This document shows, one piece after another, positions 1,473-56,480 of a stretch of DNA of 64,000 nt. The DNA comes from Thermodesulfobacteriota bacterium (GTDB lineage Bacteria; Desulfobacterota; Desulfobaccia; Desulfobaccales; 0-14-0-80-60-11). The position numbers were made by a program, and so were the translations under genes. The DNA lies in contig JBMORF010000060.1 in the NCBI GenBank assembly GCA_049322315.1, positions 7,557 to 71,556 on the forward strand. Reading direction: 5' to 3'. A model generated the notes under the pieces. The model did not search any database, had not been told where the DNA came from, and saw only the letters and a program-made list of their open reading frames with translations. The stretch's first letter is position 1. Each line of letters starts with the position of its first letter.

Positions 1473-1504
1473 TACTGGCTACTGGCCACTGACTACTGGC
1501 AACT
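1473..1504 (+). repeat. Heptamer array TACTGGC/CACTGAC (about 4.5 units)
   Basis: tactggc tactggc cactgac tactggc aact. Ends 4 nt from the GNAT stop codon (1509-1511, minus strand). Confidence 0.9.
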
Positions 1505-16913: not shown

Positions 16914-16975
16914 CGTAGCACCGGCCTTCCAGCCTGTGCAAACTAGAGACAACCAAAATTTTTTTTGCATCTAAC

Positions 16976-20285: not shown

Positions 20286-21544
20286 CGGCCCATGTCAGCC
20301 GCTGGGTGCTGCCGGTGAGCGGCCCACCCATTGATAACGGCGCGGTCCTGGTGGCCGGGGACCGGATTAAGGCCGTGGGTTCCGCTTCCGAAGTCCTGCG
20401 GGGCTTTCAGGGGCAGATTAACGACCATGGTTTCGGAGCCATCCTCCCGGGGCTGGTCAATTGCCATACCCACCTGGAGTTTTCCGCCCTGGCCGGCCGC
20501 GTGCCCCCTCAAGAACGCTGGGAAGATTGGCTGGCCCTTACCCTCGCAGCCGCGGCGGCGCTGACTCCCCCGGAAAAAAATGCGGGCCTCCGCCGGGGCC
20601 TCCAGGCCCTGAGAGACACCGGGGTGGCCCTGGTGGGGGATATCAGCAATACCGGGGAAAGTCTGCCCCTGCTGGCGGCGTCTTCCCTGGATTACCAGTT
20701 TTTTTTTGAATGCCTGGGCTTCGACCTGCTGGATCTGGGAAATCTGGAGGAAGCTTTTCCCTTCTTTGCCACCTCCCTGGCTGCTGATAACCCCTGCATC
20801 TCCGCCGGAGCCCATGCCCCCTATTCCGTGTCTCCGGCTCTCTTTAAGGCCGTCAAGCGGTGGAACCGGGAGCGCCGGCGCCCTCAATGCGTGCATCTGG
20901 CGGAATCCCGGGCGGAAGAAGAATTCCTCGCCCGGGGGGATGGTTTTTTCAAGGAACTGTTACAAGCCCGGCGCCGCTGGGTTCCCGATTTCCGGGCTCC
21001 CGGCCTAAGCCCCGCGGCTTATCTCAACTCTCTGGATTTTTGGGGTCCCGACACCCTGGCCGTTCACGGCGTCTGGCTCAATGCCTGGGACTGCGCCCTG
21101 CTGGCAGGCACCGGCGCCTGGGTCGTTCTCTGCCCCCGGGCCAATGTCTATACCGGCGCGGGTACGCCGCCTCTCCCGGAATTGCTGCAAGCCGGAGTGC
21201 CTCTGGCCCTGGGCACCGACTCCCTGGCCGGCAACCACGACCTGAACCTCTTCCAAGAGATGCTCTGGCTCCATCAAAAATACCGCCATTACCCCGAAGG
21301 CCGCTGGCTGCGCCTGGGAACTCTCCAGGGGGCCCGGGCCCTCAAACGTGAATCTGACTTGGGCAGCCTGGAACCCGGGAAAAAGGCGGCGATGGGGTTT
21401 ATTCCTTTAAGCCGGGAAAAAGATTACTGGGAAGAACTCTACACCCGCGGCGCCGCCGGCGAGTGGCGCTGGCTTGGATCAGGGGTTGTTACGGAGAAAG
21501 ATCATGGCAGACAAGGTGCGTTTGGGCCGCATTCAGTATCTTAA
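20282..21544 (+). CDS. Amidohydrolase (MtaD / aminofutalosine deaminase-like)
   Basis: Metal motif VNCHTHLEFS, HLAES and GTDSLA. Start chosen at the ATGA overlap with the upstream stop (20282-20285). Confidence 0.65.
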   Translation: MTAHVSRWVLPVSGPPIDNGAVLVAGDRIKAVGSASEVLRGFQGQINDHGFGAILPGLVNCHTHLEFSALAGRVPPQERWEDWLALTLAAAAALTPPEKNAGLRRGLQALRDTGVALVGDISNTGESLPLLAASSLDYQFFFECLGFDLLDLGNLEEAFPFFATSLAADNPCISAGAHAPYSVSPALFKAVKRWNRERRRPQCVHLAESRAEEEFLARGDGFFKELLQARRRWVPDFRAPGLSPAAYLNSLDFWGPDTLAVHGVWLNAWDCALLAGTGAWVVLCPRANVYTGAGTPPLPELLQAGVPLALGTDSLAGNHDLNLFQEMLWLHQKYRHYPEGRWLRLGTLQGARALKRESDLGSLEPGKKAAMGFIPLSREKDYWEELYTRGAAGEWRWLGSGVVTEKDHGRQGAFGPHSVS

Positions 21545-22331
21545 CGTTTTGCCCATCTATTTTGCCCTGGAAAATCTCTTTGGGGAAAACGGCTTTGACT
21601 TGGTCACCGGCACGCCTGCGGACCTGAACGCCGGGCTGCGTCAGGGCCGGGTGGATCTGGGCTCCGTCTCGGCCATGGAGTACGGCCGTAACTTTCGGGA
21701 TTATTTTCTGCTCCCCGACCTCTCCATCAGTTCCCGGGGGCCGGTGGGCAGTGTCTTGCTCTTCAGCCGGGTGCCGGTGGCCGAGCTGGATGGCCGGAGC
21801 CTCCTGATGAGCGCCCACTCCGCCAGCGGAGCCGCGCTTTTGAAGGTGTTGATGGCTGAACTTTACGGCCTGCAACCCAGCTACCGCCAGGGTTCGGTGG
21901 AGGAGGCCCTTACCTCGGCAGATGACGGCGTACTGGCCATCGGCGATGAGGCCCTGCAATTACAACCCCGAGGCAGTTGGCCCTATCAGTTGGATCTGGG
22001 CGCGGCCTGGCAGGAGTGGGTCGGCCTCCCCTTCGTCTTCGGCGTCTGGGCCGTGCGCCGGGATTATGCCGCGGCCTGTCCGGAAAAAACCGCGGCCTTG
22101 CATTATCTGCTGCTTCGCTCCCGGGATTGGGGCCTTAAGGCCCTCCCGGAGCTGAGCCGCTTGGCCGCCGCCACCCTGGGCCGCCCGGTCTCCGAGCTGC
22201 TCTCTTACTTCCGGCAACTGGATTATTCCCTGGGTCAGGATCACGAAAAGGGTCTGCATACCTTTTTTAACTATCTCTATAACCTGGGAGAACTTGCAGA
22301 AATCCCGGAGCTAACTTATTTTCAGGAGTGA
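21504..22331 (+). CDS. mqnA: Chorismate dehydratase MqnA
   Basis: RLGRIQYLNVLPIYFAL N-terminus typical of MqnA (VitK2_biosynth family). Confidence 0.75.
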   Translation: MADKVRLGRIQYLNVLPIYFALENLFGENGFDLVTGTPADLNAGLRQGRVDLGSVSAMEYGRNFRDYFLLPDLSISSRGPVGSVLLFSRVPVAELDGRSLLMSAHSASGAALLKVLMAELYGLQPSYRQGSVEEALTSADDGVLAIGDEALQLQPRGSWPYQLDLGAAWQEWVGLPFVFGVWAVRRDYAAACPEKTAALHYLLLRSRDWGLKALPELSRLAAATLGRPVSELLSYFRQLDYSLGQDHEKGLHTFFNYLYNLGELAEIPELTYFQE

Positions 22332-22333
22332 AG

Positions 22334-22683
22334 GCAGTGAGCAGCAAGCAGTTAGCGGTGAGCAGTTGTTTTCTTCTGGCCACTGGCCACTGACTACTGG
22401 CCACTGACTACTGGCCACTGACTACTGGCTACTGACTACTGGCTACTGACTACTGGCTACTGACTACTGGCTACTGACTACTGGCTACTGACTACTGGCT
22501 ACTGACTACTGGCTACTGGCTACTGACTACTGGCTACTGGCTACTGGCTACTGGCTACTGACTACTGGCTACTGGCTACTGACTACTGGCTACTGGCTAC
22601 TGGCTACTGACTACTGACTACTGACTACTGACTACTGGCTACTTAGTATTGATTACTGATTTGAGTTCGCTGATCGCTGTTCT
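22334..22683 (+). repeat. Giant phased heptamer array, 50 units (350 bp)
   Basis: The core 22376-22641 is 38 perfect units: 4 CTGGCCA, 18 CTGGCTA and 16 CTGACTA. Degenerate in-phase units flank it (GCAGYRA on the 5' side, CTTAGTA..CTGATCG on the 3' side). The array starts 2 nt after the mqnA stop. Confidence 0.97.
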
Positions 22684-22709
22684 ATCTTCCTCCTTAAAAG
22701 GATAACCCA

Positions 22710-24155
22710 ATGGGATATCGGCATTTACAGGAATTTATCCGACGTCTGGAGCGGGCCGGGGAGTTGGTGCGCCTCAAAGAACCGGTGAACCCCTATTTGG
22801 AGATTACGGAGATCACCGACCGGGTCTCAAAGGCCGGAGGCCCGGCCCTGCTCTTTGAGCAAGTCCCGGGCTACGATCTACCGGTGCTGATGAACGCCTT
22901 CGGCTCCTTGAAACGCATGTGCCTGGCCCTGGAGGTGGACTCCCTGGACGATATTGCCGGGGAGATTCTCTCTTTCCTGGAGGCTGAGGCCAACACCCTG
23001 ATGAAAAAATTGCAGCTCCTCCCTAAGTTGGCCCGGCTCGGCCGCATGTTTCCCAAGACCGTGTCCAAGGCCCCCTGCCAGGAGGTGGTTTACACCGGCG
23101 AGCAGGTGGACTTAAGGACTATTCCCGTGCTCCACTGCTGGCCCCAGGACGGCGGTCCTTTCATCACCCTGCCCGCGGTCATCAGCCACCATCCGGAGAC
23201 CGGCAAACGCAACGTGGGCATGTACCGCCTCCAGGTTTACGATGGGCAGACCACCGGCATGCACTGGCACCGGCATAAGGGCGGAGCCCAGCACTACCGG
23301 GTGGCTTCGGCCAGGGGGGAAAATCTGCCGGTGGCGGTGGCCATCGGCCCCGACCCCGCGGTGATCTATGCGGCCACCGCGCCCTTGCCGGAAGATATCG
23401 ATGAAATCGTCTTTGCCGGTTTCTTAAGGGGGGAGGCGGTGGAGATGGTCAATTGCCTCACCCAGCCGGTGATGGTGCCTGCAGAGAGCCAGATCGTCCT
23501 GGAAGGCTATGTGGCCCCCGGGGAACTGCGCCGGGAAGGCCCCTTCGGCGATCATACCGGTTACTATTCCCTGGCCGACGATTATCCGGTCTTTCATATC
23601 ACCGCCCTGACCCAGCGCCGGGAGGCGGTTTATCCGGCCACCATTGTCGGGCGGCCCCCCATGGAGGATTGTTTCATTGCCAAGGCCACGGAGCGCATCT
23701 TTTTGCCCTTAATGAAGAAAACCCTGCCGGAGATCGTGGACCTCAACCTGCCGGTGGAAGGAGTCTTCCATAACCTGGCCTTTGTCAGTATCGACAAACG
23801 TTATCCCGGTCATGCCCGTAAGGTGATGCACGCCCTCTGGGGCCTGGGGCAGATGATGTTCACCAAGATCATCGTGGTTTTTGACCGGGAGGTGGACGTC
23901 CAGGATCTGGGCCAGGTTCTCTGGCGGTTAGGGAACAACGTGGACCCCAAGCGGGACGTGGTTTTCGCCGAAGGGCCGGTGGACGCCCTGGATCACGCCT
24001 CGCCTTTACCCCATTACGGGTCCAAGATGGGCATCGACGCCACCCGCAAGGGGCCGGAGGAAGGCTTTACCCGGGAATGGCCGCCGGTCATCGACATGGA
24101 CCCGGAAATCAAACGCAAGGTGGATGAACTGTGGCCGCGGCTGGGACTGGCATGA
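22710..24155 (+). CDS. ubiD: UbiD family decarboxylase (menaquinone/ubiquinone-type, MqnL-like)
   Basis: 481 aa with GMYRLQV, HWHRHKGGA and GPFGDHTGYY. Confidence 0.85.
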   Translation: MGYRHLQEFIRRLERAGELVRLKEPVNPYLEITEITDRVSKAGGPALLFEQVPGYDLPVLMNAFGSLKRMCLALEVDSLDDIAGEILSFLEAEANTLMKKLQLLPKLARLGRMFPKTVSKAPCQEVVYTGEQVDLRTIPVLHCWPQDGGPFITLPAVISHHPETGKRNVGMYRLQVYDGQTTGMHWHRHKGGAQHYRVASARGENLPVAVAIGPDPAVIYAATAPLPEDIDEIVFAGFLRGEAVEMVNCLTQPVMVPAESQIVLEGYVAPGELRREGPFGDHTGYYSLADDYPVFHITALTQRREAVYPATIVGRPPMEDCFIAKATERIFLPLMKKTLPEIVDLNLPVEGVFHNLAFVSIDKRYPGHARKVMHALWGLGQMMFTKIIVVFDREVDVQDLGQVLWRLGNNVDPKRDVVFAEGPVDALDHASPLPHYGSKMGIDATRKGPEEGFTREWPPVIDMDPEIKRKVDELWPRLGLA

Positions 24156-24715: not shown

Positions 24716-24718
24716 AAA

Positions 24719-24795
24719 GTTCAAGGTTCAAAGTTCAAGGTTCAAGGTTTCGAGATGCGATAATAACTTTGAACTTTGAACCTTCAACTTTGAAC
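24719..24795. repeat. Inverted heptamer arms GTTCAAR x4 / YTTGAAC x4 (11 phased units, hairpin-capable)
   Basis: gttcaag gttcaaa gttcaag gttcaag gtttcga gatgcga taataac tttgaac tttgaac cttcaac tttgaac. Starts 3 nt after the ubiX stop. Confidence 0.95.
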
Positions 24796-24806
24796 TAAGG
24801 TTCATT

Positions 24807-25667
24807 ATGCAGCAATTTTTTCGCAATATCTATGAAATTCTGGACATGATCAAAATCGGCCACAGTGTCCTGGCCCTCCCCTTTGCCTTTATGGGGGCCA
24901 TGCTGGCGGCCCGGGGCTGGCCGGATGGCCGCACCACCCTCTTTATCCTCCTGGCCATGGTCACCGCCCGGAGCGCGGCCATGGCCTTCAATCGTCTGGT
25001 GGATGCCGCCATCGACGCCGCCAACCCCCGGACCGCCACCCGATCGTTGCCCCAAGGACGTCTAAAGAGGAACTCGGTGCGGCTCTTTGTGGCCGTGAAT
25101 TGCCTGCTCTTTGTCTGGGCCGCGGGCCAGCTCAACCGAATCTGCCTTTTCCTCTCTCCCCTGGCCCTGGCGGTGATTTTAGGCTATTCCCTCACCAAAA
25201 GGTTCACCTCCGCCACCCATTTTATCCTGGGTTTGGGTCTGGGCCTGGCTCCGGTGGGTGGCTGGCTGGCGGTACGGGGCGATCTGAGCCTCCAGGTTCT
25301 GGTTTTGGGAGGGTCTGTCCTTTTTTGGGTGGCGGGTTTTGATATCCTCTACGCCCTCCAGGATGAGGAGTTCGACCGGCAAACGGGGCTCTGGTCCCTG
25401 CCGGCCCGGGTGGGGTCGGATTGGGCCCGGGGTCTGGCGGCCGGCTGCCACCTGCTGGCGGCCGCCGGTTTTCTCCTTACCGGTATCATGGCGGGGTTAC
25501 ACGGGGTTTACCCGGTGGCCGCGCTTTTAGGGGCCGGACTGCTGGCCGGTCAACATATAATTCTTACCCTGAGGGGAGCCACACGGCTCCCTCCAGCCTT
25601 TTTTACTCTCAACGGCTTGGTGGGGCTGGGCTTGGGTTTAGCCACGTGGCTCAGCCTTGTCCGCTAA
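24807..25667 (+). CDS. UbiA family prenyltransferase (4-hydroxybenzoate polyprenyltransferase-like / MqnP-like)
   Basis: NRLVDAAIDAANPRT Asp-rich motif in a polytopic protein. Confidence 0.8.
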   Translation: MQQFFRNIYEILDMIKIGHSVLALPFAFMGAMLAARGWPDGRTTLFILLAMVTARSAAMAFNRLVDAAIDAANPRTATRSLPQGRLKRNSVRLFVAVNCLLFVWAAGQLNRICLFLSPLALAVILGYSLTKRFTSATHFILGLGLGLAPVGGWLAVRGDLSLQVLVLGGSVLFWVAGFDILYALQDEEFDRQTGLWSLPARVGSDWARGLAAGCHLLAAAGFLLTGIMAGLHGVYPVAALLGAGLLAGQHIILTLRGATRLPPAFFTLNGLVGLGLGLATWLSLVR

Positions 25668-25703
25668 ACTTTTTTCTTTTTTGTGTCGAAGATGATTTTA
25701 TCC

Positions 25704-25733
25704 TTGACAAAAAAAAGGCCTGGCGCTTAAAAT
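25704..25733 (+). promoter_or_regulatory. Putative sigma70 promoter (TTGACA-N18-TAAAAT) of OMP paralog 1
   Basis: The TCCTTGACAAAAAAA block is shared with paralog 2. Confidence 0.45.
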
Positions 25734-25861
25734 GGGGGTGCCTTGAAAAGGAGAAAGGATTGGTCTTGATAAATCCTGGAAAGGAGGGATGGGGGGAACT
25801 ATAAAAAGACAGCCTCAAGACCGCAACAAAAGTTCTTCAACGATTAAGGGGGGATAATCTA

Positions 25862-29739: not shown

Positions 29740-29898
29740 CGTTTTTGGTTTTTGGTTTTTCGTACGGTTCTCAGAAGAGTAACCGGAGGGGCGGGCCTCG
29801 GCACCCGCCACCCAAGGAAAGTTTTCCTGTTTCTCAAGTAAGCTTGATTGTTAGCAATATGAACGAAAAACGCAAAACGTAAAACGCAGAACGAAACG
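29740..29898. repeat. CGTTTTT...ACGAAAA-armed intergenic element (copy 1)
   Basis: The left arm is cgttttt ggttttt ggttttt. The right arm is acgaaaa acgcaaa acgtaaa acgcaga acgaaac. The core carries a REP-C hairpin at 29788-29809. Starts 5 nt after the livM stop. Confidence 0.9.
29788..29809. repeat. REP-C hairpin GGGGCGGGCCTCGGCACCCGCC
   Basis: Stem GGCGGG/CCCGCC. A second copy lies at 41074-41095. Confidence 0.8.
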
Positions 29899-33298: not shown

Positions 33299-33578
33299 CG
33301 TTTTACGTTTTTCGTTTTGCGTTTTCCGCATGCTTATTCGATATCAAAATGGCTGGAGGGGTTTCCGTTCCTTTCCAGCTTGTAAGAAATAAAATTCTTT
33401 ATCAAAGGTTTGTTACCCGTAGGGGCGAACCTTGTGTTCGCCCGGCATCCGGGACGAAAACAAATTTCCGTAAGTAAAATCAGTGATTGATGAAGAATTG
33501 GCACTGGCAGACTGGATCTTGCGACCAGGCAGGTAAAGAAAATACGAAAAACGCAAATCGGAAAACGAAAAACGGAGA
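33299..33578. repeat. CGTTTTT...ACGAAAA-armed intergenic element (copy 2)
   Basis: The left arm is cgtttta cgttttt cgttttg cgttttc. The right arm is acgaaaa acgcaaa tcggaaa acgaaaa acggaga. The core contains REP-A at 33422-33443. Starts 5 nt after the livG stop. Confidence 0.9.
33422..33453 (+). repeat. REP-A copy GGGGCGAACCTTGTGTTCGCCC(GGCATCCGGG)
   Basis: 7-bp stem GGGCGAA/TTCGCCC. Same 22-mer as at 57763. Confidence 0.9.
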
Positions 33579-33583
33579 AGAAA

Positions 33584-34882
33584 ATGGCGATCTTTGATAG
33601 CGACGCGGAACTGTTGGAGCGCCGGTTTATGGCCCAGCTGCAATTGGAGCGCCTCCAGGCCACCCTGCACCGGGTCTATAAGAACGTCAAATTCTATAAG
33701 AGAAAGTTTGATGAGGTGGGCTTTCTGCCGGAGGACTGCCAGTCCCTGGAGGAACTGGCCCGGCTCCCCTTCACCACCCGCCAGGACCTGGCCCACGGCT
33801 ATCCCTATGAAATGTTCGCGGTCCCTCTAAGGGAGGTGGTGCGCATCCATTCCTCCACCGGCAGCCCCGGCGCCCCCATCGTCATGGGCTATACCGCCCG
33901 GGACTTGCGCCATTGGGCGAAACTCGCGGCCCGGGTCCTCACCGCCGCGGGGGTGGACCGGGACGACGTGGTGCAGGTCACCCTGAGCTATGGTCTTCTC
34001 ACCAGCGCCTTCGGGATTCACTACGGCGTGGAACTCCTGGGCGCTTCGGTGATCCCCACCGGCCCCGGGTCCACTGCCCGGCAGGTGGGCATCATGCGGG
34101 ACTACCGCACCACAGTGCTGGTGAGCACCCCGTCTTACGCCCAGGTGTTGGCGGATCAGATGGAAACCATGGGCGTGGACCCCAAGAACCTGCACCTGAA
34201 GCTGGCCCTGCTGGCCGGGGAGCCCTGGACCGAGGCCCAGCGCCGGGAGATCGAATCCCGCCTTTATCTCACCGCCCTGGACCACTACGCCCTCTCCGAA
34301 GCCATGGGCCCGGGGGTGGCCGGAGAATGCGAGCATCGCCGGGGCATGCATATCAACGAAGACCATTTTCTCCCGGAAATCATCGACCCCATAACCGGCG
34401 CGCCCCTGCCCGGGGGGGAGCTGGGGGAACTGGTGGTCACCACCATCACCAAGGAGGCCGCGCCCCTGGTGCGCTTCCGCACCGGGGACCTCTGCCGCCT
34501 GTTGTACGAGCCCTGCCCCTGCGGCCGCACCCTGCCCCGCCTCAGCCGCATCCAGGGCCGGGCCGACGCGGTGGTCATCGTCAAAGGGGTCAATATTTAT
34601 CCCACCCGGGTGGGACAAATCCTGGCGAACCTCCAGGGGGAAGAGCCGGCCTATCAGCTGGTCATCGGCCGGGAGGGCCACCTGGACTACCTGGAAGTGA
34701 AGATCGAAGTCCGGGAGGGCCTCTTCTTCGACCAGATGAAAAAGCAGCGGGAATTTTTGCAAAGCCTCACCCGCAAACTGGCCCAGGGCATCGGCGTCCA
34801 ACCCCGGGTCAAACTGGTGGAACCCCACTCCATCTCCCGGGAAGAGGAGACCTCGCCTTTGGTCATTGATTTTCGGAAATGA
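33584..34882 (+). CDS. paaK: Phenylacetate-CoA ligase family (PaaK / F390 synthetase-like) adenylating enzyme
   Basis: 432 aa with an N-terminal LERLQATLHRVYKNVKFYKRKFDE and an AMP-binding core. Confidence 0.8.
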   Translation: MAIFDSDAELLERRFMAQLQLERLQATLHRVYKNVKFYKRKFDEVGFLPEDCQSLEELARLPFTTRQDLAHGYPYEMFAVPLREVVRIHSSTGSPGAPIVMGYTARDLRHWAKLAARVLTAAGVDRDDVVQVTLSYGLLTSAFGIHYGVELLGASVIPTGPGSTARQVGIMRDYRTTVLVSTPSYAQVLADQMETMGVDPKNLHLKLALLAGEPWTEAQRREIESRLYLTALDHYALSEAMGPGVAGECEHRRGMHINEDHFLPEIIDPITGAPLPGGELGELVVTTITKEAAPLVRFRTGDLCRLLYEPCPCGRTLPRLSRIQGRADAVVIVKGVNIYPTRVGQILANLQGEEPAYQLVIGREGHLDYLEVKIEVREGLFFDQMKKQREFLQSLTRKLAQGIGVQPRVKLVEPHSISREEETSPLVIDFRK

Positions 34883-38633: not shown

Positions 38634-38665
38634 CGCAAAGGCGCAAAGGCGCAAAGGCGCAAAGA
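38634..38665 (+). repeat. Octamer array CGCAAAGG x4
   Basis: cgcaaagg cgcaaagg cgcaaagg cgcaaaga. A degenerate inverse (cctttgc..cgtctttg) lies at 56487-56510. Confidence 0.9.
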
Positions 38666-41345: not shown

Positions 41346-41373
41346 CGTTTTGTTTCAGAGAAGCTTTCCTGGT

Positions 41374-42399
41374 ATGCCATCGCTTAATGAAGCAGATTTT
41401 GTCGAGATTTTTCGCCGGGATTGGGCGGAGTTGTGGCCCTTGCTGGCCGAGGCCCAGAGCCTCCGGGAGCGCCATTTCGGCCGGGAGGTCAGTTTCTGCG
41501 TCATCACCAACGCCAAGTCGGGACTCTGTTCCGAGGATTGTGCTTTTTGTTCCCAGGCGGCCGGCGCTAGGGGAGAAATTCCCCGCTACCCCCTGTCGCC
41601 CCAGGAAGAGTTGGTGGCGGCCGCGGCCCAGGCCGCCGCAGCCGGAGCCTCCCGCTTTTCCCTGGTGACTTCCGGCCGGGGCCTTAACTCCCCCAAAGAG
41701 CAAGAGGCCCTGCTGCGCACGGTGGCCGCCATCAAGGAGACCGTCCCTATCCGGGTCTGCGCCTCCCTGGGGATTGTGGAGCCAAGCTTTCTCAAGGAAT
41801 TAAAAGCCGCGGGCCTCTCCCGTTATCACCACAATCTGGAGGCCGCGGCTTCCTTTTTCCCTCAAATTTGCACCACTCACTCCTATGCCGAACGGGTGGC
41901 CACCATCGAGGCGGCCCGGGCCGCGGGGCTTTCCGTGTGCGCCGGGGGTATTCTGGGATTGGGTGAGTCTCTGGCTCAGCGCTGGGAACTGGCCCAGGCC
42001 TTGAAAGACTTGCCGGTGGATGCTATCCCTCTCAATTTTCTGCACCCATTGCCGGGAACCGGCCTGGCCCGGCGGCCTTTGCTGCCGCCCCTGGAGGCCC
42101 TGCAGATCATCGTCGCTTTCCGCCTCCAACTCCCGGACCGGTCCCTCATCATCTGCGGCGGCCGCCAGGCGACTTTGCGTTCCCTGGCGCCTTTGATCTT
42201 CGCTGCGGGGGCCAACTGCCTGATGACCGGGGACTACCTGACCACCAAGGGCCGCCTCCCGGAGGAGGACCGGCAGATGCTAACCGACCTGGGCCTGGAA
42301 TTGGCGCAGGAAGGAATAGTGAGCAGCGAGCAGCAAGCAGTGAGCAGTGGCCAGTGGCCAGTAGCCAGTGGCCAGTGGCCAGTAGCCAGTGGCCAGTAG
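41374..42399 (+). CDS. bioB: Biotin synthase BioB (with repeat-encoded C-terminal tail)
   Basis: Radical SAM motif CSEDCAFCSQ. The last 27 aa or so (SSEQQAVSSGQWPVASGQWPVASGQ) are translated from the heptamer array. Confidence 0.9.
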   Translation: MPSLNEADFVEIFRRDWAELWPLLAEAQSLRERHFGREVSFCVITNAKSGLCSEDCAFCSQAAGARGEIPRYPLSPQEELVAAAAQAAAAGASRFSLVTSGRGLNSPKEQEALLRTVAAIKETVPIRVCASLGIVEPSFLKELKAAGLSRYHHNLEAAASFFPQICTTHSYAERVATIEAARAAGLSVCAGGILGLGESLAQRWELAQALKDLPVDAIPLNFLHPLPGTGLARRPLLPPLEALQIIVAFRLQLPDRSLIICGGRQATLRSLAPLIFAAGANCLMTGDYLTTKGRLPEEDRQMLTDLGLELAQEGIVSSEQQAVSSGQWPVASGQWPVASGQ

Positions 42400-42477
42400 C
42401 CAGTAGCCAGTGGCCAGTGGCCAGTGGCCAGTGGCCAGTAATCAGTAATCAGTGATCAGTGATCAGTAATCAGTGAA
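42317..42477 (-). repeat. Phased heptamer array CAGTRGC / CAGTRAT, 23 units (161 bp)
   Basis: tagtgag cagcgag cagcaag cagtgag, then 13 units of cagtggc/cagtagc, then cagtaat x2, cagtgat x2, cagtaat, cagtgaa. It is the reverse complement of the 22376-22641 family. The bioB stop TAG (42397-42399) lies inside a unit. Confidence 0.95.
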
Positions 42478-42549: not shown

Positions 42550-43308
42550 ATGAATCCGAAACTACCGGATATTCCCGAAATCAAAGGTCTCTTCGTCACC
42601 GGCACCGATACCAATGTGGGTAAGACCCAGGTGGCGGCCGGACTCACCGCGGCCTTAAGAAAAGGGGGGCTCAAAGCCGGGTATTTCAAGCCCGTCCAGA
42701 GCGGCTGTCCGGAGGAGGGGGGACGCCTGATCCCCACGGATGCCCGGATCGCCCAAGAGCTGGCGGCCCTGCCGGAGCCCTTGGAGCTGCTCACCCCCAT
42801 CACCTTGCGGCTGCCCCTGGCTCCGGGAGTGGCCGCGGCCCGGGAAGGGATCAAAGTGGACCTGGAGCGGGTGGCGGCGGTTTATCGGGAGCTGGCCCGG
42901 CGCTATGACTTCCTGGTGGTGGAAGGCGCGGGCGGCCTTTATGTGCCCCTGGTGGACACCAAATTTTTAGTCCTGGACCTGGCCTGCTGGCTTAATCTCC
43001 CCCTGTTGGTAGTGGCTCGGGCGGGCCTGGGGACCATCAACCACACGGCCCTCACCGTGTTGGCGGCCCGCCGGGCGGGGTTGGCCGTGGCCGGGGTGAT
43101 CCTCAATCGCTGCTCCGCTTCCCCGGGATTGGCGGAGAAGACCAATCCGGAGGTGATTGAGGCCCTCACCGGCGTCCCCATCCTGGGCAAGGTGCCGGAG
43201 ATCGACAACCTCGAATCTCCCGAGGGCAAGCAGATTTTTCTAAGCGCAATGGCAGGAATCTGCTCCGGCATAAATCTTTTCAAAAATTCGCAATGTCGCG
43301 GAGACTGA
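42550..43308 (+). CDS. bioD: Dethiobiotin synthase BioD
   Basis: LFVTGTDTNVGKT P-loop. Start at ATG 42550. Confidence 0.9.
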   Translation: MNPKLPDIPEIKGLFVTGTDTNVGKTQVAAGLTAALRKGGLKAGYFKPVQSGCPEEGGRLIPTDARIAQELAALPEPLELLTPITLRLPLAPGVAAAREGIKVDLERVAAVYRELARRYDFLVVEGAGGLYVPLVDTKFLVLDLACWLNLPLLVVARAGLGTINHTALTVLAARRAGLAVAGVILNRCSASPGLAEKTNPEVIEALTGVPILGKVPEIDNLESPEGKQIFLSAMAGICSGINLFKNSQCRGD

Positions 43309-43353
43309 TCAGTGATCACTGACTACTGATCACTGACTACTGGCCACTGAATC
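43305..43353 (+). repeat. Heptamer array CTGAYYA x7 filling the bioD-bioF spacer
   Basis: ctgatca gtgatca ctgacta ctgatca ctgacta ctggcca ctgaatc. Overlaps the bioD stop and ends at the bioF ATG. Confidence 0.95.
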
Positions 43354-44529
43354 ATGTTCCCGGAACTGGCCCAAGAATTAGCGGATTTAGAGACCCAGGC
43401 CCTGCGGCGTCGCCTCCAGGTGGTGGAGGAGTTGTTGCCCGGCGGTAAGGTGAGGGTTAAGGGACAGGTGTTATTAAACTTGTCGTCCAATGATTATCTG
43501 GGCCTGGCCCAGGACCCCCGCCTCATCAATGAAGCCCAGGCCGCGGCCGCCCGTTGGGGCGTGGGGGCCGGAGCCTCCCGGTTGGTGGTGGGCCACCTGG
43601 GACTGCATGAAGAAGTGGAAACGGAACTGGCCGCGTTCAAGGGCACTGAAGCCGCGGTGATCTTCAGCACCGGTTACATGGCCAACGTGGGGGTGATTGC
43701 CGCCTTAATGGGGCCCGGGGACCTCATCTTCAGCGACAGACTCAACCACGCCAGCATCATGGACGGCATCAAACTATCCGGCGCGGCCCTGCAGCGCTTT
43801 CCCCACCGGGACTTAAACCGGCTGGAAAAAATGTTACAGCAGGCTCCCCCGGCTAAAAGACGCCTGCTCATCACCGATTCCGTCTTTTCCGTGGACGGCG
43901 ACCTGGCCCCTTTAAGGGAATTGGTGGAGTTAAAGGAACGTTACGGCCTTTGGCTGATGATTGACGAGGCCCACGCCACCGGCGTTCTGGGGCCGGGAGG
44001 CGCAGGCCTGGCCCAGGAATTGGGCCTGACGGCTAGGGTGGAGATCCACCTGGGCACCTTCTCCAAGGCCCTGGGCTCCCTGGGAGGCTACGTGGCCGGG
44101 GACCGGCGGCTCATTGACTATCTGCACAACCGGGCTCGCTCCTTCATCTATTCCACGGCCCTGCCGCCGCCGGTTCTGGGCGCCATCCAGGCGGCCTTGC
44201 AGGTAGTCCGGGCGGAGCCGGAAAGAAGGCGGAGTCTCTTGGAGCAATCCGCCAATTTCCGTCGGGGTTTACAAGCCGCAGGCTTTGACACCCTGGGCAG
44301 CGAAACCCAGATCGTCCCCGCGCTGGTGGGGAAAAATGAACCCACCCTGAAGTTTGCCGGCGCGCTTCGGGAGCGGGGCCTGATGGCCGTGGCCTTAAGG
44401 CCGCCCACGGTGCCGCCGGGAAGGGCCCGGGTCCGTTTTTCTTTGTCTGCGGCCCATGGGGCGGCAGACCTGGACGCGGCTCTCAAGACCATTGGGGAGA
44501 CGGGCCGAGCCATGGGGTTGGCCCAATGA
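43354..44529 (+). CDS. bioF: 8-amino-7-oxononanoate synthase BioF
   Basis: PLP-lysine region GTFSKALGSLGGYVAG, 391 aa. Confidence 0.9.
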   Translation: MFPELAQELADLETQALRRRLQVVEELLPGGKVRVKGQVLLNLSSNDYLGLAQDPRLINEAQAAAARWGVGAGASRLVVGHLGLHEEVETELAAFKGTEAAVIFSTGYMANVGVIAALMGPGDLIFSDRLNHASIMDGIKLSGAALQRFPHRDLNRLEKMLQQAPPAKRRLLITDSVFSVDGDLAPLRELVELKERYGLWLMIDEAHATGVLGPGGAGLAQELGLTARVEIHLGTFSKALGSLGGYVAGDRRLIDYLHNRARSFIYSTALPPPVLGAIQAALQVVRAEPERRRSLLEQSANFRRGLQAAGFDTLGSETQIVPALVGKNEPTLKFAGALRERGLMAVALRPPTVPPGRARVRFSLSAAHGAADLDAALKTIGETGRAMGLAQ

Positions 44530-46065: not shown

Positions 46066-46308
46066 CGTTTTTCGTTTTGGGTTTTTCGTTTTTCGTTGGG
46101 GTCTGCTATCGTTATCTTTGTGCAATTTTCTGCATACCTCTTAGCTTTTTTATTGGCAAAATCAATTAATATGTTAACATTATAAGGTTTAAGTAAGGTC
46201 GATGTTGATGGTATAGCAGCTTTTCAAACTTGTTCCTGCTAATCAAACTAAAGTAGATCACCAGATGCTTTTAACGAAAAACGAAAAACGGGAAACGGAA
46301 AACCGTAT
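46066..46308. repeat. CGTTTTT...ACGAAAA-armed intergenic element (copy 3)
   Basis: The left arm is cgttttt cgttttg ggttttt cgttttt cgttggg. The right arm is acgaaaa acgaaaa acgggaa acggaaa accgtat. The core is AT-rich. Starts 3 nt after the bioC stop. Confidence 0.9.
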
Positions 46309-46315
46309 TTAAGCT

Positions 46316-48184
46316 ATGTCCGAATTACTCACAGGCCAGCCGGGTGAACGGCGGTTATTTCTGGGAAACGAGGCCATTGTTCGGGGGGCCCTGGAGGCCG
46401 GGGTCGCCCTGGTCGCCACCTACCCCGGCACCCCCGCCTCGGAGATCGGCGACCGCTGTTACGAAATCTCCCGGCAAACGGACCTCTACTTCGAATACTC
46501 CGTCAATGAAAAGGTGGCCCTGGAAGTGGCCGCGGGGGCGGCGGCCTCCGGCTGGCGCTCTCTGTGTTCCATGAAGCACGTGGGCCTCAACGTGGCCGCG
46601 GACACCCTGATGACCCTGGCCTATGTGGGCGTTAAAGCCGGGTTGGTCATCATCAGCGCCGACGACCCTTCTCTCTTTTCCAGCCAGAACGAACAAGATA
46701 ACCGCTACTACGCCAAAATGTCGGGTATCCCTATGCTGGAGCCGTCTTCCCCCCAGGAAGCCAAAGAGATGACCCGGGCCGCGTTCAAGATTTCCGAGGA
46801 GTTGCAACTGCCGGTGCTGCTCCGCACCACCACCCGCATTAACCATTCCCGGGCCCCGGTGACCTTGGGAGAACTGGCCCCCTTTCCCCGCCCCGGTTTT
46901 TTCCCCAAAGAGCCTTTCCAGAAAGTGATGGTTCCCATGGTGGCCCGCCAGGGCCATGTACGGCTGCTGGAGGCCCAGGCCCGGGCCGCGGACCAGGCCG
47001 AGGTTTCCGGCTTTAACCGGATATCTGGTCAAGGGACCTGGGGCATCGTCACCAGCGGCGTGAGCAGCAGCTACGTGGAAGACGCCTTGGCCGAACTGGG
47101 TCTGAAAGACCGGGTGTGGCTTCTCAAGCTGGGCTTCACCCACCCCCTGCCGGTAAATCTGATCACCAAGTTTCTGGCGCCTCTGGAAAAGGTGCTGGTG
47201 GTGGAGGAATTGGAGCCGTACCTGGAGGAGAGCCTCCGGGCCATCGCCCAGGCCCAGGGTTTGACCCTGCCCATCCAGGGGAAGAGCCCGGCCCTCTTTT
47301 CCCGGCTCTATGAGTATCATCCGGCCCTGGTGCGCCGGGTCACGGCCCGGTATTTCGGCGTGCCCGACAAGGTCACGGAGCCTCCGGAACCGGCGGCGAT
47401 TCTGGGACAGCCCCTGCCGGAGCGGCCCCCCAACCTCTGTCCGGGTTGCCCCCACCGTGCCATGTATTATTCCGTGAAAATAGCTTTAAAAGACTTGGGC
47501 GTCGAAGGGGTCTTCCCCACGGACATCGGCTGCTACACCCTGGGGCTGCTGCCGCCCCTTTCCATGGCCGATATCCTCATCTGTATGGGCTCTTCCATCA
47601 ACAACGCCGCGGGCATTTCCCGGGCCACGGAGCAGAAGGTGGTGGCCTTTATCGGTGATTCCACCTTTTTCCATGCCGGCCTGCCGGGCCTGACCAACGC
47701 CGTGCACCAAAACCATGATTTTCTCCTGGTCATCCTGGACAACGGCACTACGGCCATGACCGGCCACCAGCCGCATCCGGGGGTGTCCCTCACTCCCGTT
47801 GGCTACCCGTGCGAACACGTGCCCCTCAAGCGGGTGGTCAAGGCCCTGGGCGTGGAAAAACTCTGGGTGGTCAATCCCTTTAAATATCAGGAGGCCCTTA
47901 AGGCCACCAAAGAAGCGGTAAGCGCCACCGGGGTGCGGGTTCTTATTGCCGAGGCCCCTTGTCATCTGCATGTGCACCGGCTCCAGGGTAAGAAAAGCCA
48001 GGCCCGCTTCCAGGTCACCGACCAGTGCCGGGACTGCCGCCACTGTCTGGATTACTTCGGCTGTCCGGCTATGCAACTGAACGATAAGCCGGAAGGAGGC
48101 CGCATGCTCATCGACACCGACCTCTGCACCGGCTGCGCCTTCTGCGTCCAATGGTGCGAGGCCATCCGGCCGGTGAAGAAGTGA
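46316..48184 (+). CDS. iorA: Indolepyruvate ferredoxin oxidoreductase alpha subunit
   Basis: TPP motif GDSTFFHAG and a C-terminal 4Fe-4S domain (CRDCRHC, CTGCAFCVQWC). Confidence 0.9.
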   Translation: MSELLTGQPGERRLFLGNEAIVRGALEAGVALVATYPGTPASEIGDRCYEISRQTDLYFEYSVNEKVALEVAAGAAASGWRSLCSMKHVGLNVAADTLMTLAYVGVKAGLVIISADDPSLFSSQNEQDNRYYAKMSGIPMLEPSSPQEAKEMTRAAFKISEELQLPVLLRTTTRINHSRAPVTLGELAPFPRPGFFPKEPFQKVMVPMVARQGHVRLLEAQARAADQAEVSGFNRISGQGTWGIVTSGVSSSYVEDALAELGLKDRVWLLKLGFTHPLPVNLITKFLAPLEKVLVVEELEPYLEESLRAIAQAQGLTLPIQGKSPALFSRLYEYHPALVRRVTARYFGVPDKVTEPPEPAAILGQPLPERPPNLCPGCPHRAMYYSVKIALKDLGVEGVFPTDIGCYTLGLLPPLSMADILICMGSSINNAAGISRATEQKVVAFIGDSTFFHAGLPGLTNAVHQNHDFLLVILDNGTTAMTGHQPHPGVSLTPVGYPCEHVPLKRVVKALGVEKLWVVNPFKYQEALKATKEAVSATGVRVLIAEAPCHLHVHRLQGKKSQARFQVTDQCRDCRHCLDYFGCPAMQLNDKPEGGRMLIDTDLCTGCAFCVQWCEAIRPVKK

Positions 48185-48271
48185 GCGGTGAGCGGTGAGC
48201 GGTGAGCAGTAATAAGTAATAAGTAATAAGTAATAAGTAATAAGTAATAAGTAATCAGTTAATAGTGGGCA
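48181..48271 (+). repeat. Phased heptamer array GTGAGCG x4 then GTAATAA x6 and variants (13 units)
   Basis: The first unit contains the iorA stop TGA (48182-48184). Confidence 0.95.
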
Positions 48272-48315: not shown

Positions 48316-48343
48316 CCGGTGGCACAGGCGTCTCGCCTGTGCA
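48316..48343 (+). repeat. REP-B copy, 28 of 28 identical to the left REP of the RAYT
   Basis: CCGGTGGCACAGGCGTCTCGCCTGTGCA, identical to 37423-37450. Confidence 0.95.
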
Positions 48344-48362
48344 TGAAAAGCGAGGGACAGAA

Positions 48363-48887
48363 ATGATGAAGGGAGAATTTGATGAGATTGAATTGAAAAT
48401 TAAAGAAATACTTGAAAAGATTGCCCAGCAAGCCGTTGAAGATGGTGGTTATACCAATGAATGGTGGACAAAGAGAATTAAATCTGAACTTTGCATTTTA
48501 GGCCATGAGAAAGGGTATAGTGTCAGTGCAACAGGATGTGAGCGTCTAGAAAAAGCTCCAGAGACTGGAGAATGGCTGTTTGATCTGATTTGGGCAAAAG
48601 GCGAGGGTCATCCATGGATTTTTCGAGAAATGCCCTTAGCTAGGGAATGCGAATGGCCTTTAAATGAAAATGAAATATGGTGGGATTTTGAGAAACTTTT
48701 AGTAATTAGAAGTAAATATCGTATTTTTATTTTTGATAAAAGAAAAAGAGAGGATATTGAGAGACTTTTTAATGAATTTAATGATGCAATTCATGGTTTC
48801 GAGAGTTCACAAAAGGGAGACAGGTATCTTTTAGCCGGTTTTTCTTGCGAAGATAATAATTTCAAATTTCGACAGGTAATCGCCTAA
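48363..48887 (+). CDS. Hypothetical protein (174 aa), AT-rich orphan between iorA and iorB
   Basis: Start at ATG 48363 with RBS GAGGGA (the track start lies inside the REP). No family recognised. A weak PD-(D/E)xK-like pattern is present (EWLFDLIW...ECEW...DFEKLL). Confidence 0.5.
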   Translation: MMKGEFDEIELKIKEILEKIAQQAVEDGGYTNEWWTKRIKSELCILGHEKGYSVSATGCERLEKAPETGEWLFDLIWAKGEGHPWIFREMPLARECEWPLNENEIWWDFEKLLVIRSKYRIFIFDKRKREDIERLFNEFNDAIHGFESSQKGDRYLLAGFSCEDNNFKFRQVIA

Positions 48888-50073: not shown

Positions 50074-50178
50074 GCTATTAGTAATAAGTGATAAGTAATA
50101 AGTGATCAATTATTAATAAATTCTTATGACTTATGACTTATGACTTATGACTTATGACTTATTACTTATTGCTGTCTA
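50074..50178. repeat. Inverted heptamer arms GTRATAA x4 / CTTATGA x5 plus CTTATTR (15 phased units)
   Basis: Starts 3 nt after the archease stop and ends 2 nt before the rtcB ATG. Confidence 0.95.
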
Positions 50179-51691: not shown

Positions 51692-51994
51692 ATGCCAATA
51701 ATCGAACTACCACATGGAAATGCCTCGTTCGATTCTGATGATTTAAAAGGATATATTAGAGCAACAGGTAGGAACTACATCATACAAGGACAGCAAAATT
51801 GTAGTAGAAAAAATCATACTAAGCCTCAAAGCTTGGACTGTTGGCTAAAAGGTAATTGTACTCAATATTCTGATACTAAACAAGCAGTAAATGAAGTAAT
51901 ATATGGTCTTATAAACACTGGAGAATTTAGGGAAGGAAGATATATCTGTCCTGATACTGGAAGATGGGCCAAAGGAATCCAAATAATAGATTAA
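51692..51994 (+). CDS. Hypothetical protein (100 aa), AT-rich orphan
   Basis: ATG with upstream GAAGG. No family recognised. Four Cys residues. Confidence 0.4.
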   Translation: MPIIELPHGNASFDSDDLKGYIRATGRNYIIQGQQNCSRKNHTKPQSLDCWLKGNCTQYSDTKQAVNEVIYGLINTGEFREGRYICPDTGRWAKGIQIID

Positions 51995-56314: not shown

Positions 56315-56480
56315 CGTTTTTTGTTTTTGGTTTTTCGTTTTTCGTGAAAAGAATCTAAAAATTTCGACAAACTGCACATAACCTTCGATTCGTTTGCAAG
56401 TGAAGAGGACATGCATTGAATTAATTAAGCTTGTCATTAATACTTATCCTTTACGAAAAACGAAAAACGAAAAACGGTCT
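56315..56480. repeat. CGTTTTT...ACGAAAA-armed intergenic element (copy 4)
   Basis: The left arm is cgttttt tgttttt ggttttt cgttttt cgtgaaa. The right arm is acgaaaa x3 then acggtct. The core is AT-rich. Starts 3 nt after the rnhB stop. Confidence 0.9.

Follow-up and report, generated by a model that had tools for sequence, protein, structure and literature searches.

A 38-unit heptanucleotide array between mqnA and ubiD in a Desulfobaccales-like bacterium, and its likely origin as the expanded arm of an intercistronic hairpin

The stretch analyzed here, called the window throughout, comprises 64,000 nucleotides (nt) of a Thermodesulfobacteriota bacterium (assembly GCA_049322315.1, contig JBMORF010000060.1, positions 7,557 to 71,556 of the forward strand). 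Between two of its menaquinone biosynthesis genes, mqnA and ubiD, it carries a long tandem array of 7-nt units. A first-pass annotation, made from the letters alone, had placed the mqnA stop codon at 22329-22331 and ubiD downstream of the array, and both assignments hold (PF02621 for mqnA; TIGR03701 and an ATG at 22710 for ubiD). The mqnA frame is open from 21474; starting at ATG 21504, it gives a protein of 275 amino acids (aa), the same length as in relatives, with 82% identity to the ortholog of the nearest relative found (locus L001). On the 5' side of mqnA lie two radical-SAM genes of the CofH/MqnC type, an MTAP-like phosphorylase and an aminofutalosine-deaminase-like hydrolase, while ubiD is followed by UbiX-type and then UbiA/MqnP-type genes; judged by their sequences, these genes would together form a futalosine-pathway operon. 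The mqnA-ubiD spacer measures about 378 nt in the window, and the locus is laid out as follows.

21504 to 22331, plus strand: mqnA, futalosine-pathway menaquinone biosynthesis, 275 aa from ATG 21504, stop TGA at 22329-22331 (Pfam PF02621 VitK2_biosynth, E=1.3e-68)
22334 to 22368, plus strand: 5' arm, five CAGT-oriented heptamers (GCAGTGA GCAGCAA GCAGTTA GCGGTGA GCAGTTG), beginning 2 nt past the mqnA stop
22369 to 22375, plus strand: 7-nt loop or spacer TTTTCTT between the arms, seen in the sequence; its counterpart in L001 is GTTTCCT
22376 to 22641, plus strand: core array, 38 exact ACTG-oriented heptamers, from the sequence and Tandem Repeats Finder (TRF)
22642 to 22695, plus strand: decayed 3' units CTTAGTA TTGATTA CTGATTT GAGTTCG CTGATCG CTGTTCT (ending at 22683) plus flank, the probable original 3' arm
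22696 to 22712, plus strand: ribosome-binding site (RBS) AAAAGGA at 22696-22702 and ubiD ATG at 22710, seen in the sequence; in relatives, AAAAGGA or AAGAGGA stands right behind the 3' arm
22710 to 24155, plus strand: ubiD, UbiD-family menaquinone biosynthesis decarboxylase (TIGR03701 mena_SCO4490, E=2e-197)

The core array is built of 38 exact 7-nt units in 266 nt, namely 4 CTGGCCA, 18 CTGGCTA and 16 CTGACTA. With these units written as C, G and A, respectively, the array reads CC A C A C A, (G A) x6 and GG A GGGG A GG A GGG AAAA G (in compact form, CCACACA GAGAGAGAGAGA GG A GGGG A GG A GGG AAAA G). In other words, a 5' part with strict 14-nt alternation passes into a 3' part in which the variants stand in runs. 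TRF reports period 7, 38.3 copies and a score of 396, and together with the sequence it bears out the number, composition and order of the error-free units that the first-pass annotation had read; its description of two alternating units has to be amended, as the core uses three. Dinucleotide shuffles of the window give ~0 exact arrays (at least 3 copies, any period), which places the core array far above chance.

The same annotation had counted 50 consecutive units, and 22334-22683 can indeed be cut into 50 in-phase 7-mers. A single direct-repeat family, however, takes in only the 38 core units and about 5 decayed 3' units. The five units on the 5' side match the array at 20-22 of 35 positions as reverse complement and at 14-16 of 35 directly, and the remaining TTTTCTT is a loop, which is itself 7 nt long and for that reason keeps the 7-mer phase across the arms. 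Decay of the core into related units is thus found at its 3' edge, as had been claimed, but not at its 5' edge. If G-U pairs are allowed, many registers let 27 of the 35 positions of the 5' arm pair with the array. By these matches, the 5' units are the opposite arm of an inverted repeat, and the element as a whole is an inverted pair of heptamer arrays, which would form a hairpin. The relationship between the arms was demonstrated by register scans and duplex folding; an inverted-repeat search of the spacer returned only trivial TGGCCA-based pairs, the arm complementarity being ~60-77% including G-U pairs.

We considered whether the array might code for a peptide of repeats or for a repetitive C-terminal end of some protein. 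One frame does stay open for 41 codons, the longest open stretch of the core, and elsewhere in the window an open reading frame (ORF), 41350-42399, runs ~80 nt into another heptamer array. However, 4-12 stops occur in each of the six frames of the 266 nt, the mqnA stop lies before the array, no plus-strand ORF of at least 40 aa spans it, and the spacer in relatives is 65-140 nt long with unrelated units. Because of the stops in all six frames, coding potential is effectively refuted and the array is taken as non-coding, as had been concluded earlier; we give the coding explanation practically no chance.

Folded as a whole, the mqnA-ubiD spacer reaches z=-4.6 against shuffles. In its minimum free energy structure, the end of mqnA and the 5' arm (22325-22368) pair with the last array units and with 22668-22690, so that most of the array loops out. 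The best duplex of the 5' arm is the one with the distal flank, at -35.6 kcal/mol, compared with -28 to -30 kcal/mol for duplexes with array segments, and a proximal fold has a z of just 0.06. Based on these two results, we regard the decayed distal part as probably the ancestral 3' arm, and the 38 units as probably an insertion-like expansion beside the loop.

For comparison with other genomes, we used the contigs of the best UbiD matches together with 80 metagenome loci, all of them fully syntenic. Named UbiD homologs belong to metagenome-assembled genomes (MAGs) of Desulfobaccales, Desulfobacca or Thermodesulfobacteriota, at ~79-82% identity, while the best matches overall are metagenome proteins at 95%, 92% and 86% identity. 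At the syntenic loci, the spacer is 140 nt long in L001, 81 nt in L002-5 and 97 nt in L006, with short inverted heptamer arrays around a loop and hairpin fold z values of -5.7, -3.0 and -4.5, respectively. Among relatives with at least 83% UbiD identity, the spacer nearly always opens with CAG(T)-oriented heptamers of the (NNGCAGT)n type right behind the mqnA stop, such as (GCAGTAA)4-5, GCAGTAG GTGGTGA, or CGGTCAG CGGCCAG CAGTCAG. It is closed by a complementary ACTG/CTG-oriented (ACTGNNN)n array that abuts the AAAAGGA/AAGAGGA ribosome-binding site, and between the arms lies a short loop or an unrelated insert of ~100-800 nt. Eleven of the 12 unique spacers from these relatives fold with z values of -2.0 to -6.5, and most of the 12 are closed by a stem of the stop-proximal and RBS-proximal parts, even where inserts of ~100-170 nt intervene (L007, L036, L013). 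Two loci, L045 (91%) and L014 (83%), have GC-rich non-heptamer hairpins in place of the heptamer stem; among more distant relatives, some loci have a hairpin of this GC-rich, non-heptamer kind and the others do not fold significantly.

The nearest relative, L001 (95% UbiD identity), reads AGTAATC x3.4, GTTTCCT, CTGGCTA CTGGCTA CTGATTA CTGATCA; it thus carries the unit of the window, but in 4 copies versus at least 38, a difference of about 10-fold. Because the hairpin at this spacer has only 2-8 units per arm in relatives, the long array is a lineage-specific expansion of the 3' arm, most likely by replication slippage. A comparison of related loci, as the first-pass annotation had proposed for sister strains, therefore does reveal a difference in copy number; a conspecific spacer was found neither by protein look-ups nor in the UbiD metagenome scan, which returned relatives at 93% identity or less. 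The period-7 trait itself is clade-specific: its density per 10 kb is 3.6 in the window, 4.0 at loci with at least 89% UbiD identity, 1.45 at 83-89%, 1.08 at 78-83% and ~0 below 78%, while periods other than 7 are near zero at every identity level.

Within the window, too, tandem repetition is overwhelmingly a matter of period 7. Of the exact arrays with at least 3 copies, 12 have this period, one has period 3, one has period 8, and three have period 14, a multiple of 7; no other periods occur, and shuffles give ~0. The first-pass annotation had made its reading depend on such an excess, and in the 64 kb it is found as 12 exact arrays against 0-1 at any other period that is not a multiple of 7. 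A scoring scan finds 25 period-7 arrays covering 1,077 nt, 20 of which lie mostly within the non-coding ~10% of the window (p=3e-16), and period-7 arrays account for 13.6% of its non-coding bases. They occur in about one third or more of all spacers and fall into at least six unrelated unit families: AAAAACG, AACCTTG/AAGTTCA, ACTGGCT/ACTGGCC/AATCAGT, AAGTAAT, AAAAGCT and AAGTCAT. Spacers with arrays have a median fold z of -2.2, compared with -0.5 for those without, and many of the arrays are inverted pairs with strong folds (z=-7.0 at 24716-24796; z=-6.4 at 50075-50175). What sets the mqnA-ubiD array apart is its length, 38 units against ~22 in the runner-up (42321-42476) and ~3-7 in the others. 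The arrays most closely connected with it, by operon or by unit, are listed below.

24716 to 24796, plus strand: sister hairpin in the ubiX-ubiA spacer, (AAGTTCA/AAGGTTC)4.4, loop, (AACTTTG)4.6, spanning stop to ribosome-binding site (fold z=-7.0)
42321 to 42476, plus strand: runner-up CAGT-core array of ~22 units, GAGCAGT, then GGCCAGT/AGCCAGT, then AATCAGT/GATCAGT (repeat scans)
1473 to 1504, plus strand: short CAGT-family array TACTGGC x4.6, in CAGT orientation just past the stop of the minus-strand gene 1509-2078 (repeat scan)
43304 to 43350, plus strand: short CAGT-family array ACTGACC x6.7, occupying the 45-nt spacer before the start at 43354 (gap fold z=-5.0)

The orthologous ubiX-ubiA spacer has period-7 arms in the window and period-8 arms of unrelated sequence (AAGACACC / TCTTGGTG) in relatives with 92-95% identity (L001 12016-12123, L002 12012-12129). 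Units and even the period therefore turn over, while the architecture of inverted arrays persists. The single perfect period-8 array of the window, (CGCAAAGG)3.9, lies at 38634-38664. Within the runner-up array, 42345-42439 has a higher-order period of 21 nt (CAGTGGC CAGTGGC CAGTAGC); the ORF that stays open ~80 nt into this array has a C-terminus that the repeat may encode or falsely extend, and (AACCTTG)5.4 stands between the array and the next start.

Several further repeats in the window were recorded. Inverted pairs of the form (CGTTTTT)n ... (AAAAACG)n, at 29741-29893, 33299-33584, 46066-46303 and 56315-56476, flank spacers of ~100-210 nt just 5' of plus-strand starts, one of which (46098-46272) is visibly AT-rich. 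The same design is found at syntenic sites in the 92% relative (L002 16006-16166 and 18114-18262), and these pairs might bracket promoters or 5' untranslated regions (5'-UTRs). At 48181-48264, (GTGAGCG)3.9 runs directly into (AGTAATA)7-8 behind a stop codon, and at 50080-50170, (AGTAATA/AGTGATA)3.4 pairs with (CTTATGA)6.9 in a hairpin (z=-6.4) whose arms are partly complementary and reliant on G-U pairs. A small GC-rich palindrome, GGTGGCACAGGC-(5-6 nt)-GCCTGTGC, recurs in window spacers (48318-48345, 16917-16940) and is also present at L007 4879-4901, in the mqnA-ubiD spacer of L015, at L021 8916-8938 and at L114 1873-1895. Its occurrences include the inserts by which the mqnA-ubiD hairpin of relatives is interrupted, and another 'delta proteobacterium' MAG; it could be an element like the repetitive extragenic palindromic (REP) sequences or the miniature inverted-repeat transposable elements. 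Finally, the plus-strand ORFs 48339-48887 and 51692-51994 have a third-position GC of 0.28 and 0.21, compared with ~0.75 in their neighbors, and are either not real genes, lying in AT-rich non-coding DNA, or of foreign origin.

Given its position and its variation in length, the array could be read as a contingency (phase-variable) switch, in which gain and loss of units sets the levels of ubiD-ubiX-ubiA and is kept by selection, as at the (ATCTTTC)n repeat of Haemophilus influenzae hmw1A. It directly adjoins the ubiD ribosome-binding site on the 5' side and has a complementary arm, like the hairpin in the hmw 5'-UTR (PMC12721329), and its copy number differs ~10-fold from that of L001. The genes downstream, however, serve housekeeping quinone biosynthesis and not surface or host interaction, and with similar arrays in about a third or more of the spacers the phenomenon is genome-wide, not locus-specific. 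We think such a switch quite unlikely.

To see how far this unit family extends, we scanned one genome per GTDB species for four successive copies of CTGRCYA. The scan returned at least 120 stretches, distributed over at least 10 phyla, where uniform base frequencies predict ~0.004 by our own arithmetic. Among the matches listed are Acidobacteriota, Planctomycetota, Chloroflexota, Cyanobacteria (Microcoleus, Tychonema), Bacteroidota, Verrucomicrobiota, Firmicutes, Actinomycetota, Alphaproteobacteria, Latescibacterota, Nitrospinota, Chlorobium, a Desulfobacca MAG and several "delta proteobacterium" MAGs, and some of the listed arrays reach 30-38 copies. One of these, in a Caldilineaceae MAG (L096 918-1182), is (CCACTGA/CCACCGA)38 with the two variants intermixed. 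In a Thermomicrobiales MAG (L162 4095-4190), a stop codon is followed by AGTAGCC AGTAGCC AGTAGTC AGTGGTC, a loop, and CTGGCTA CTGACTA CTGGCTA CTGACTA, which is the same design with the same units as in the window, in a different phylum.

The matches also have a strand polarity. Read in the ACTG direction, 71 of the 87 intergenic arrays with genes on both sides (among the matches listed) are closer to the gene on their 3' side, with a median gap of 11 nt on that side and 92 nt on the other (p=2e-9). This neighbor presents the start of a same-strand gene in 35 cases and the stop end of an opposite-strand gene in 52, and therefore arrays that read as ACTG stand before starts and arrays that read as CAGT stand behind stops. 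All six CAGT/ACTG-family arrays in the window follow this rule. The polarity argues for a transcript-level constraint or role, or for a transcription-linked origin.

The scan also bears on the possibility that the array exists but that its length and variant order were produced by repeat resolution in the assembler. At 266 nt, the array is longer than the k-mers common in assemblers, and exact-sequence look-ups of UbiD, start-trimmed MqnA (275 aa) and UbiX (186 aa) gave no records that could provide a second copy. The only independent contig of the strain (L207, Logan SRR32167788; 1,029 bp), found via UbiA, is 100% identical to window 24721-25749, from which it follows that the same strain is present in SRR32167788. 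This contig begins 5 nt inside the neighboring ubiX-ubiA array, which is compatible with short-read assemblies breaking at such arrays. On the other hand, an aperiodic variant order in the 3' half and unique, decayed edges would be unusual for a collapsed or looped repeat. Arrays of 13-38 units are also present in chromosome-level MAG records (OZ-accession, e.g. L120, L138) as well as in other MAG contigs (L096), and relatives independently carry the same element at the same place. We therefore consider a misassembled length very unlikely.

A constant 7-nt register could also point to a multivalent binding platform, in which each unit would bind one protein with an oligonucleotide-binding (OB) fold, of the cold-shock or S1 type, on the mRNA, or one dimer of a heptad-reading protein on double-stranded DNA, the array sequestering or positioning the factor 5' of ubiD. 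For such unit-wise binding to double-stranded DNA, the heptad-reading omega repressor of pSM19035 is a precedent. The register is indeed kept whatever the unit sequence, and across phyla the arrays abut starts in one orientation and stops in the other. S1, Csp and CsrA have been suggested as binders of TAACTGA repeats, with CspB covering one heptamer per protein (MacGregor 2015, PMC4679880), and work on Nostoc recF/recO postulated a heptamer-binding partner, the regulatory roles being speculative. However, the 64 kb contain at least six unrelated unit families (AAAAACG, AACCTTG, ACTGGCT, AAGTAAT, AAAAGCT, AAGTCAT), the paired arrays are complementary and fold significantly, so that structure already explains the pairs, and no promoter was found in the spacer for an operator on double-stranded DNA to control. 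A binding platform is in our view rather unlikely, and a single sequence-specific binder as the main explanation was set aside because so many unrelated unit families coexist.

The reading we favor, and hold to be rather likely, is that of an intercistronic hairpin made of two inverted heptanucleotide arrays, of a type that recurs in Desulfobaccales-like spacers, with a 3' arm that has hyper-expanded into the present array. It builds directly on the observed anatomy, the inverted arms, the period-7 excess both local to the window and specific to the clade, the short hairpin in relatives and the cross-phylum polarity. The spacer would be transcribed within the mqn operon mRNA. No sigma-70-like promoter match was found in the mqnA-ubiD spacer and no intrinsic-terminator-like site in 22332-22709, where the hairpin leads into a ribosome-binding site and not a T run, and an Rfam 15 search of the whole window gave no covariance-model match at gathering score; the spacer is for these reasons most simply taken as part of the operon transcript. 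The 38 units would have arisen by slipped-strand mispairing in steps that were 14 nt at first and 7 nt later; the perfect center, the decayed edges, the change from 14-nt alternation to runs of 7-nt units and, in the sister array, the 21-nt period of 42345-42439 suggest a recent expansion. The hairpin would clamp the mqnA stop beside the ubiD ribosome-binding site and may work as intercistronic stem-loops do elsewhere, by setting the stability of mRNA segments, by RNase III-type processing or by controlling how translation of ubiD is initiated. Surplus units would loop out and be neutral, or may tune ubiD-ubiX-ubiA expression by their copy number, as in H. influenzae hmw, which sets the precedent for a transcribed heptamer repeat as one arm of a regulatory hairpin (PMC12721329).

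Several points weigh against this reading. The proximal part, in which the 5' arm is folded with the first array units, does not surpass shuffles; for its significant fold the spacer relies on the distal flank as a pairing partner, and a repeat, once shuffled, makes an imperfect null model. Co-transcription of the spacer, and any role of its RNA, are proposed from sequence. No conspecific contig across the spacer turned up in the protein look-ups or the UbiD metagenome scan to show copy variation within the species. The gene boundaries behind the counts of polarity, array position, spacer folds and coding versus non-coding bases are crude longest-ORF calls. Finally, polarity and unit turnover with a retained architecture hint at selection or at a dedicated generating process, for which neutral slippage alone is insufficient; strand polarity is the main unexplained point of the slippage account.

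If that last point is given full weight, one arrives at a bolder proposal, which we regard as rather improbable: that polar heptamer arrays, (NNNCAGT)n after stops and (ACTGNNN)n before starts, often as stop-to-RBS clamps, constitute a cross-phylum class of post-transcriptional operon elements. Their 7-nt register would come from a dedicated reader (e.g. an OB-fold RNA chaperone or a ribosome-associated factor) or from a dedicated generating mechanism and not from neutral slippage, and the 38-unit array would be a runaway or tuned allele. Such a class would have hosts in Desulfobaccales, Chloroflexota, Acidobacteriota, Planctomycetota, Cyanobacteria and others.

Knowledge of heptanucleotide repeats in bacteria goes back to 1990. 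The short tandemly repeated repetitive (STRR) sequences of heterocystous cyanobacteria, reportedly described by Mazel et al. in that year, are said to have the units CCCCAGT, TTGGTCA and CAACAGT. The likeness to STRR sequences that the first-pass annotation had pointed out is sound at the generic level. Both consist of head-to-tail 7-nt units in many dispersed copies, mostly intergenic and with an unsettled function, and the units here are dispersed, non-coding and in period-7 excess across the 64 kb and the loci of relatives; moreover, two of the three reported STRR units share a CAGT core with the opposite strand of the array (AGCCAGT, AGTCAGT, GGCCAGT). Only this core is common, however, as the units here are CTGGCCA, CTGGCTA and CTGACTA (reverse complements GGCCAGT, AGCCAGT and AGTCAGT). 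The host is a Desulfobaccales-like member of the Thermodesulfobacteriota, with the array in a futalosine operon, and not a heterocystous cyanobacterium, and the arrays here form complementary inverted pairs that bridge a stop codon and a ribosome-binding site. REP sequences and the bacterial interspersed mosaic elements (BIMEs) built around them, imperfect palindromes of 20-40 nt that are spread by REP-associated tyrosine transposases (RAYTs) and can stabilize upstream mRNA segments, occupy the same genomic niche as repeated intergenic palindromic structures within operons. The arms of the present element are instead tandem 7-nt units, and no RAYT turned up, none having been searched for.

An excess of heptamer simple sequence repeats (SSRs) has been described for many bacteria, with a rationale in slippage and the polymerase footprint (PMC4692102); we found no mention of heptamer statistics in PMC4060949. 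Closest in unit and placement are the TAACTGA repeats of Beggiatoaceae, Bacteroidetes and Cyanobacteria, usually of 2-6 and rarely of up to 43 copies. They are overwhelmingly intergenic, lie in forward orientation just 5' of starts, have a proposed post-transcriptional role, and are missing as long arrays from the shorter orthologous spacers of close relatives (PMC4679880). The array shares with them an ACTG core, an intergenic location and a forward orientation just 5' of a start: its core ends at 22641 and its decayed units at 22683, while the ribosome-binding site starts at 22696 and ubiD, with its ATG, at 22710. Its units, in the corresponding rotation CTACTGA, CTACTGG and CCACTGG, are different, the best (CTACTGA) being identical to TAACTGA at 5 of 7 positions, while the relatives' units TTACTGA (L001) and TAACTGC (L013) each reach 6 of 7. 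The BOGUAY repeats belong to one unit family with inverted pairs in 1 of 170 cases, whereas here many families occur and inverted pairing is common; Deltaproteobacteria or Desulfobacterota are not among the carriers in that report (PMC4679880).

Other heptamers beyond the cyanobacteria are the GGGAATC/GGGGAYT repeats of Xanthomonas and Nostoc, for which inverted pairs were noted and a 26-unit array lies between two genes of an operon, pecE and pecF (Rehm 2015, PMC4692102), and, in Geobacter metallireducens, at that time placed among the deltaproteobacteria, classes of heptanucleotide repeats, one with the consensus MTYCTGA x5 (Aklujkar 2009, PMC2700814). Genome-wide intergenic tandem heptamers, inverted pairs and length variation between close relatives at one spacer are common to these systems and ours; the Xanthomonas and Nostoc units, however, are G-rich and prone to form G-quadruplexes, and the Geobacter arrays are fixed at 4-5 copies and annotated as putative regulator sites. 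In H. influenzae hmw1A/hmw2A, the (ATCTTTC)n repeat is transcribed, forms one arm of a 5'-UTR hairpin and is cleaved by RNase III, with expression falling as repeat number rises (PMC12721329). The array resembles it as a heptamer SSR directly 5' of a gene that would, if transcribed as proposed, supply one side of a long hairpin, the other side being complementary but not identical, with surplus units beyond the stem. By analogy, hmw offers the model with the best experimental backing for what such an element could do, through RNase III processing and copy-number-dependent expression. It differs in being a single contingency locus for a surface adhesin of a pathogen, in a 5'-UTR with its own promoter, while the array is intercistronic, sits in a housekeeping operon and is one of many similar elements. 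The earlier statement that no equivalent has been described therefore does not extend to bacteria at large, with heptamers known from Beggiatoaceae, Bacteroidetes, Xanthomonas and Geobacter; it stands for Desulfobacca and Desulfobaccales, for which no paper on heptamer repeats was found in the literature searched. The element is best filed with the known heptanucleotide SSRs, in a lineage for which we found no report.

The array is real in the given sequence, ordinary in kind and extreme in length, and more can be learned from its context than from the array, namely from the heptamer-built hairpins that reach from stop codon to RBS, from the turnover of units with a retained architecture, and from the cross-phylum polarity. 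On the practical side, heptamer arrays probably fragment short-read assemblies and can lengthen ORF calls. Despite the wide over-representation of bacterial heptamers, the reason for the 7-nt unit and its function are unsettled. To this subject, the locus adds a lineage, the Desulfobaccales-like relatives of sulfate reducers, for which no heptamer report was found, and an evolutionary series at one orthologous spacer, from GC-rich non-heptamer hairpins (L045 and more distant loci) over short heptamer hairpins to 38 units. It also adds a fixed orientation of one unit family relative to stop and start codons across phyla, which yields a concrete hypothesis, that such arrays may act as clamps between a stop codon and the next ribosome-binding site.

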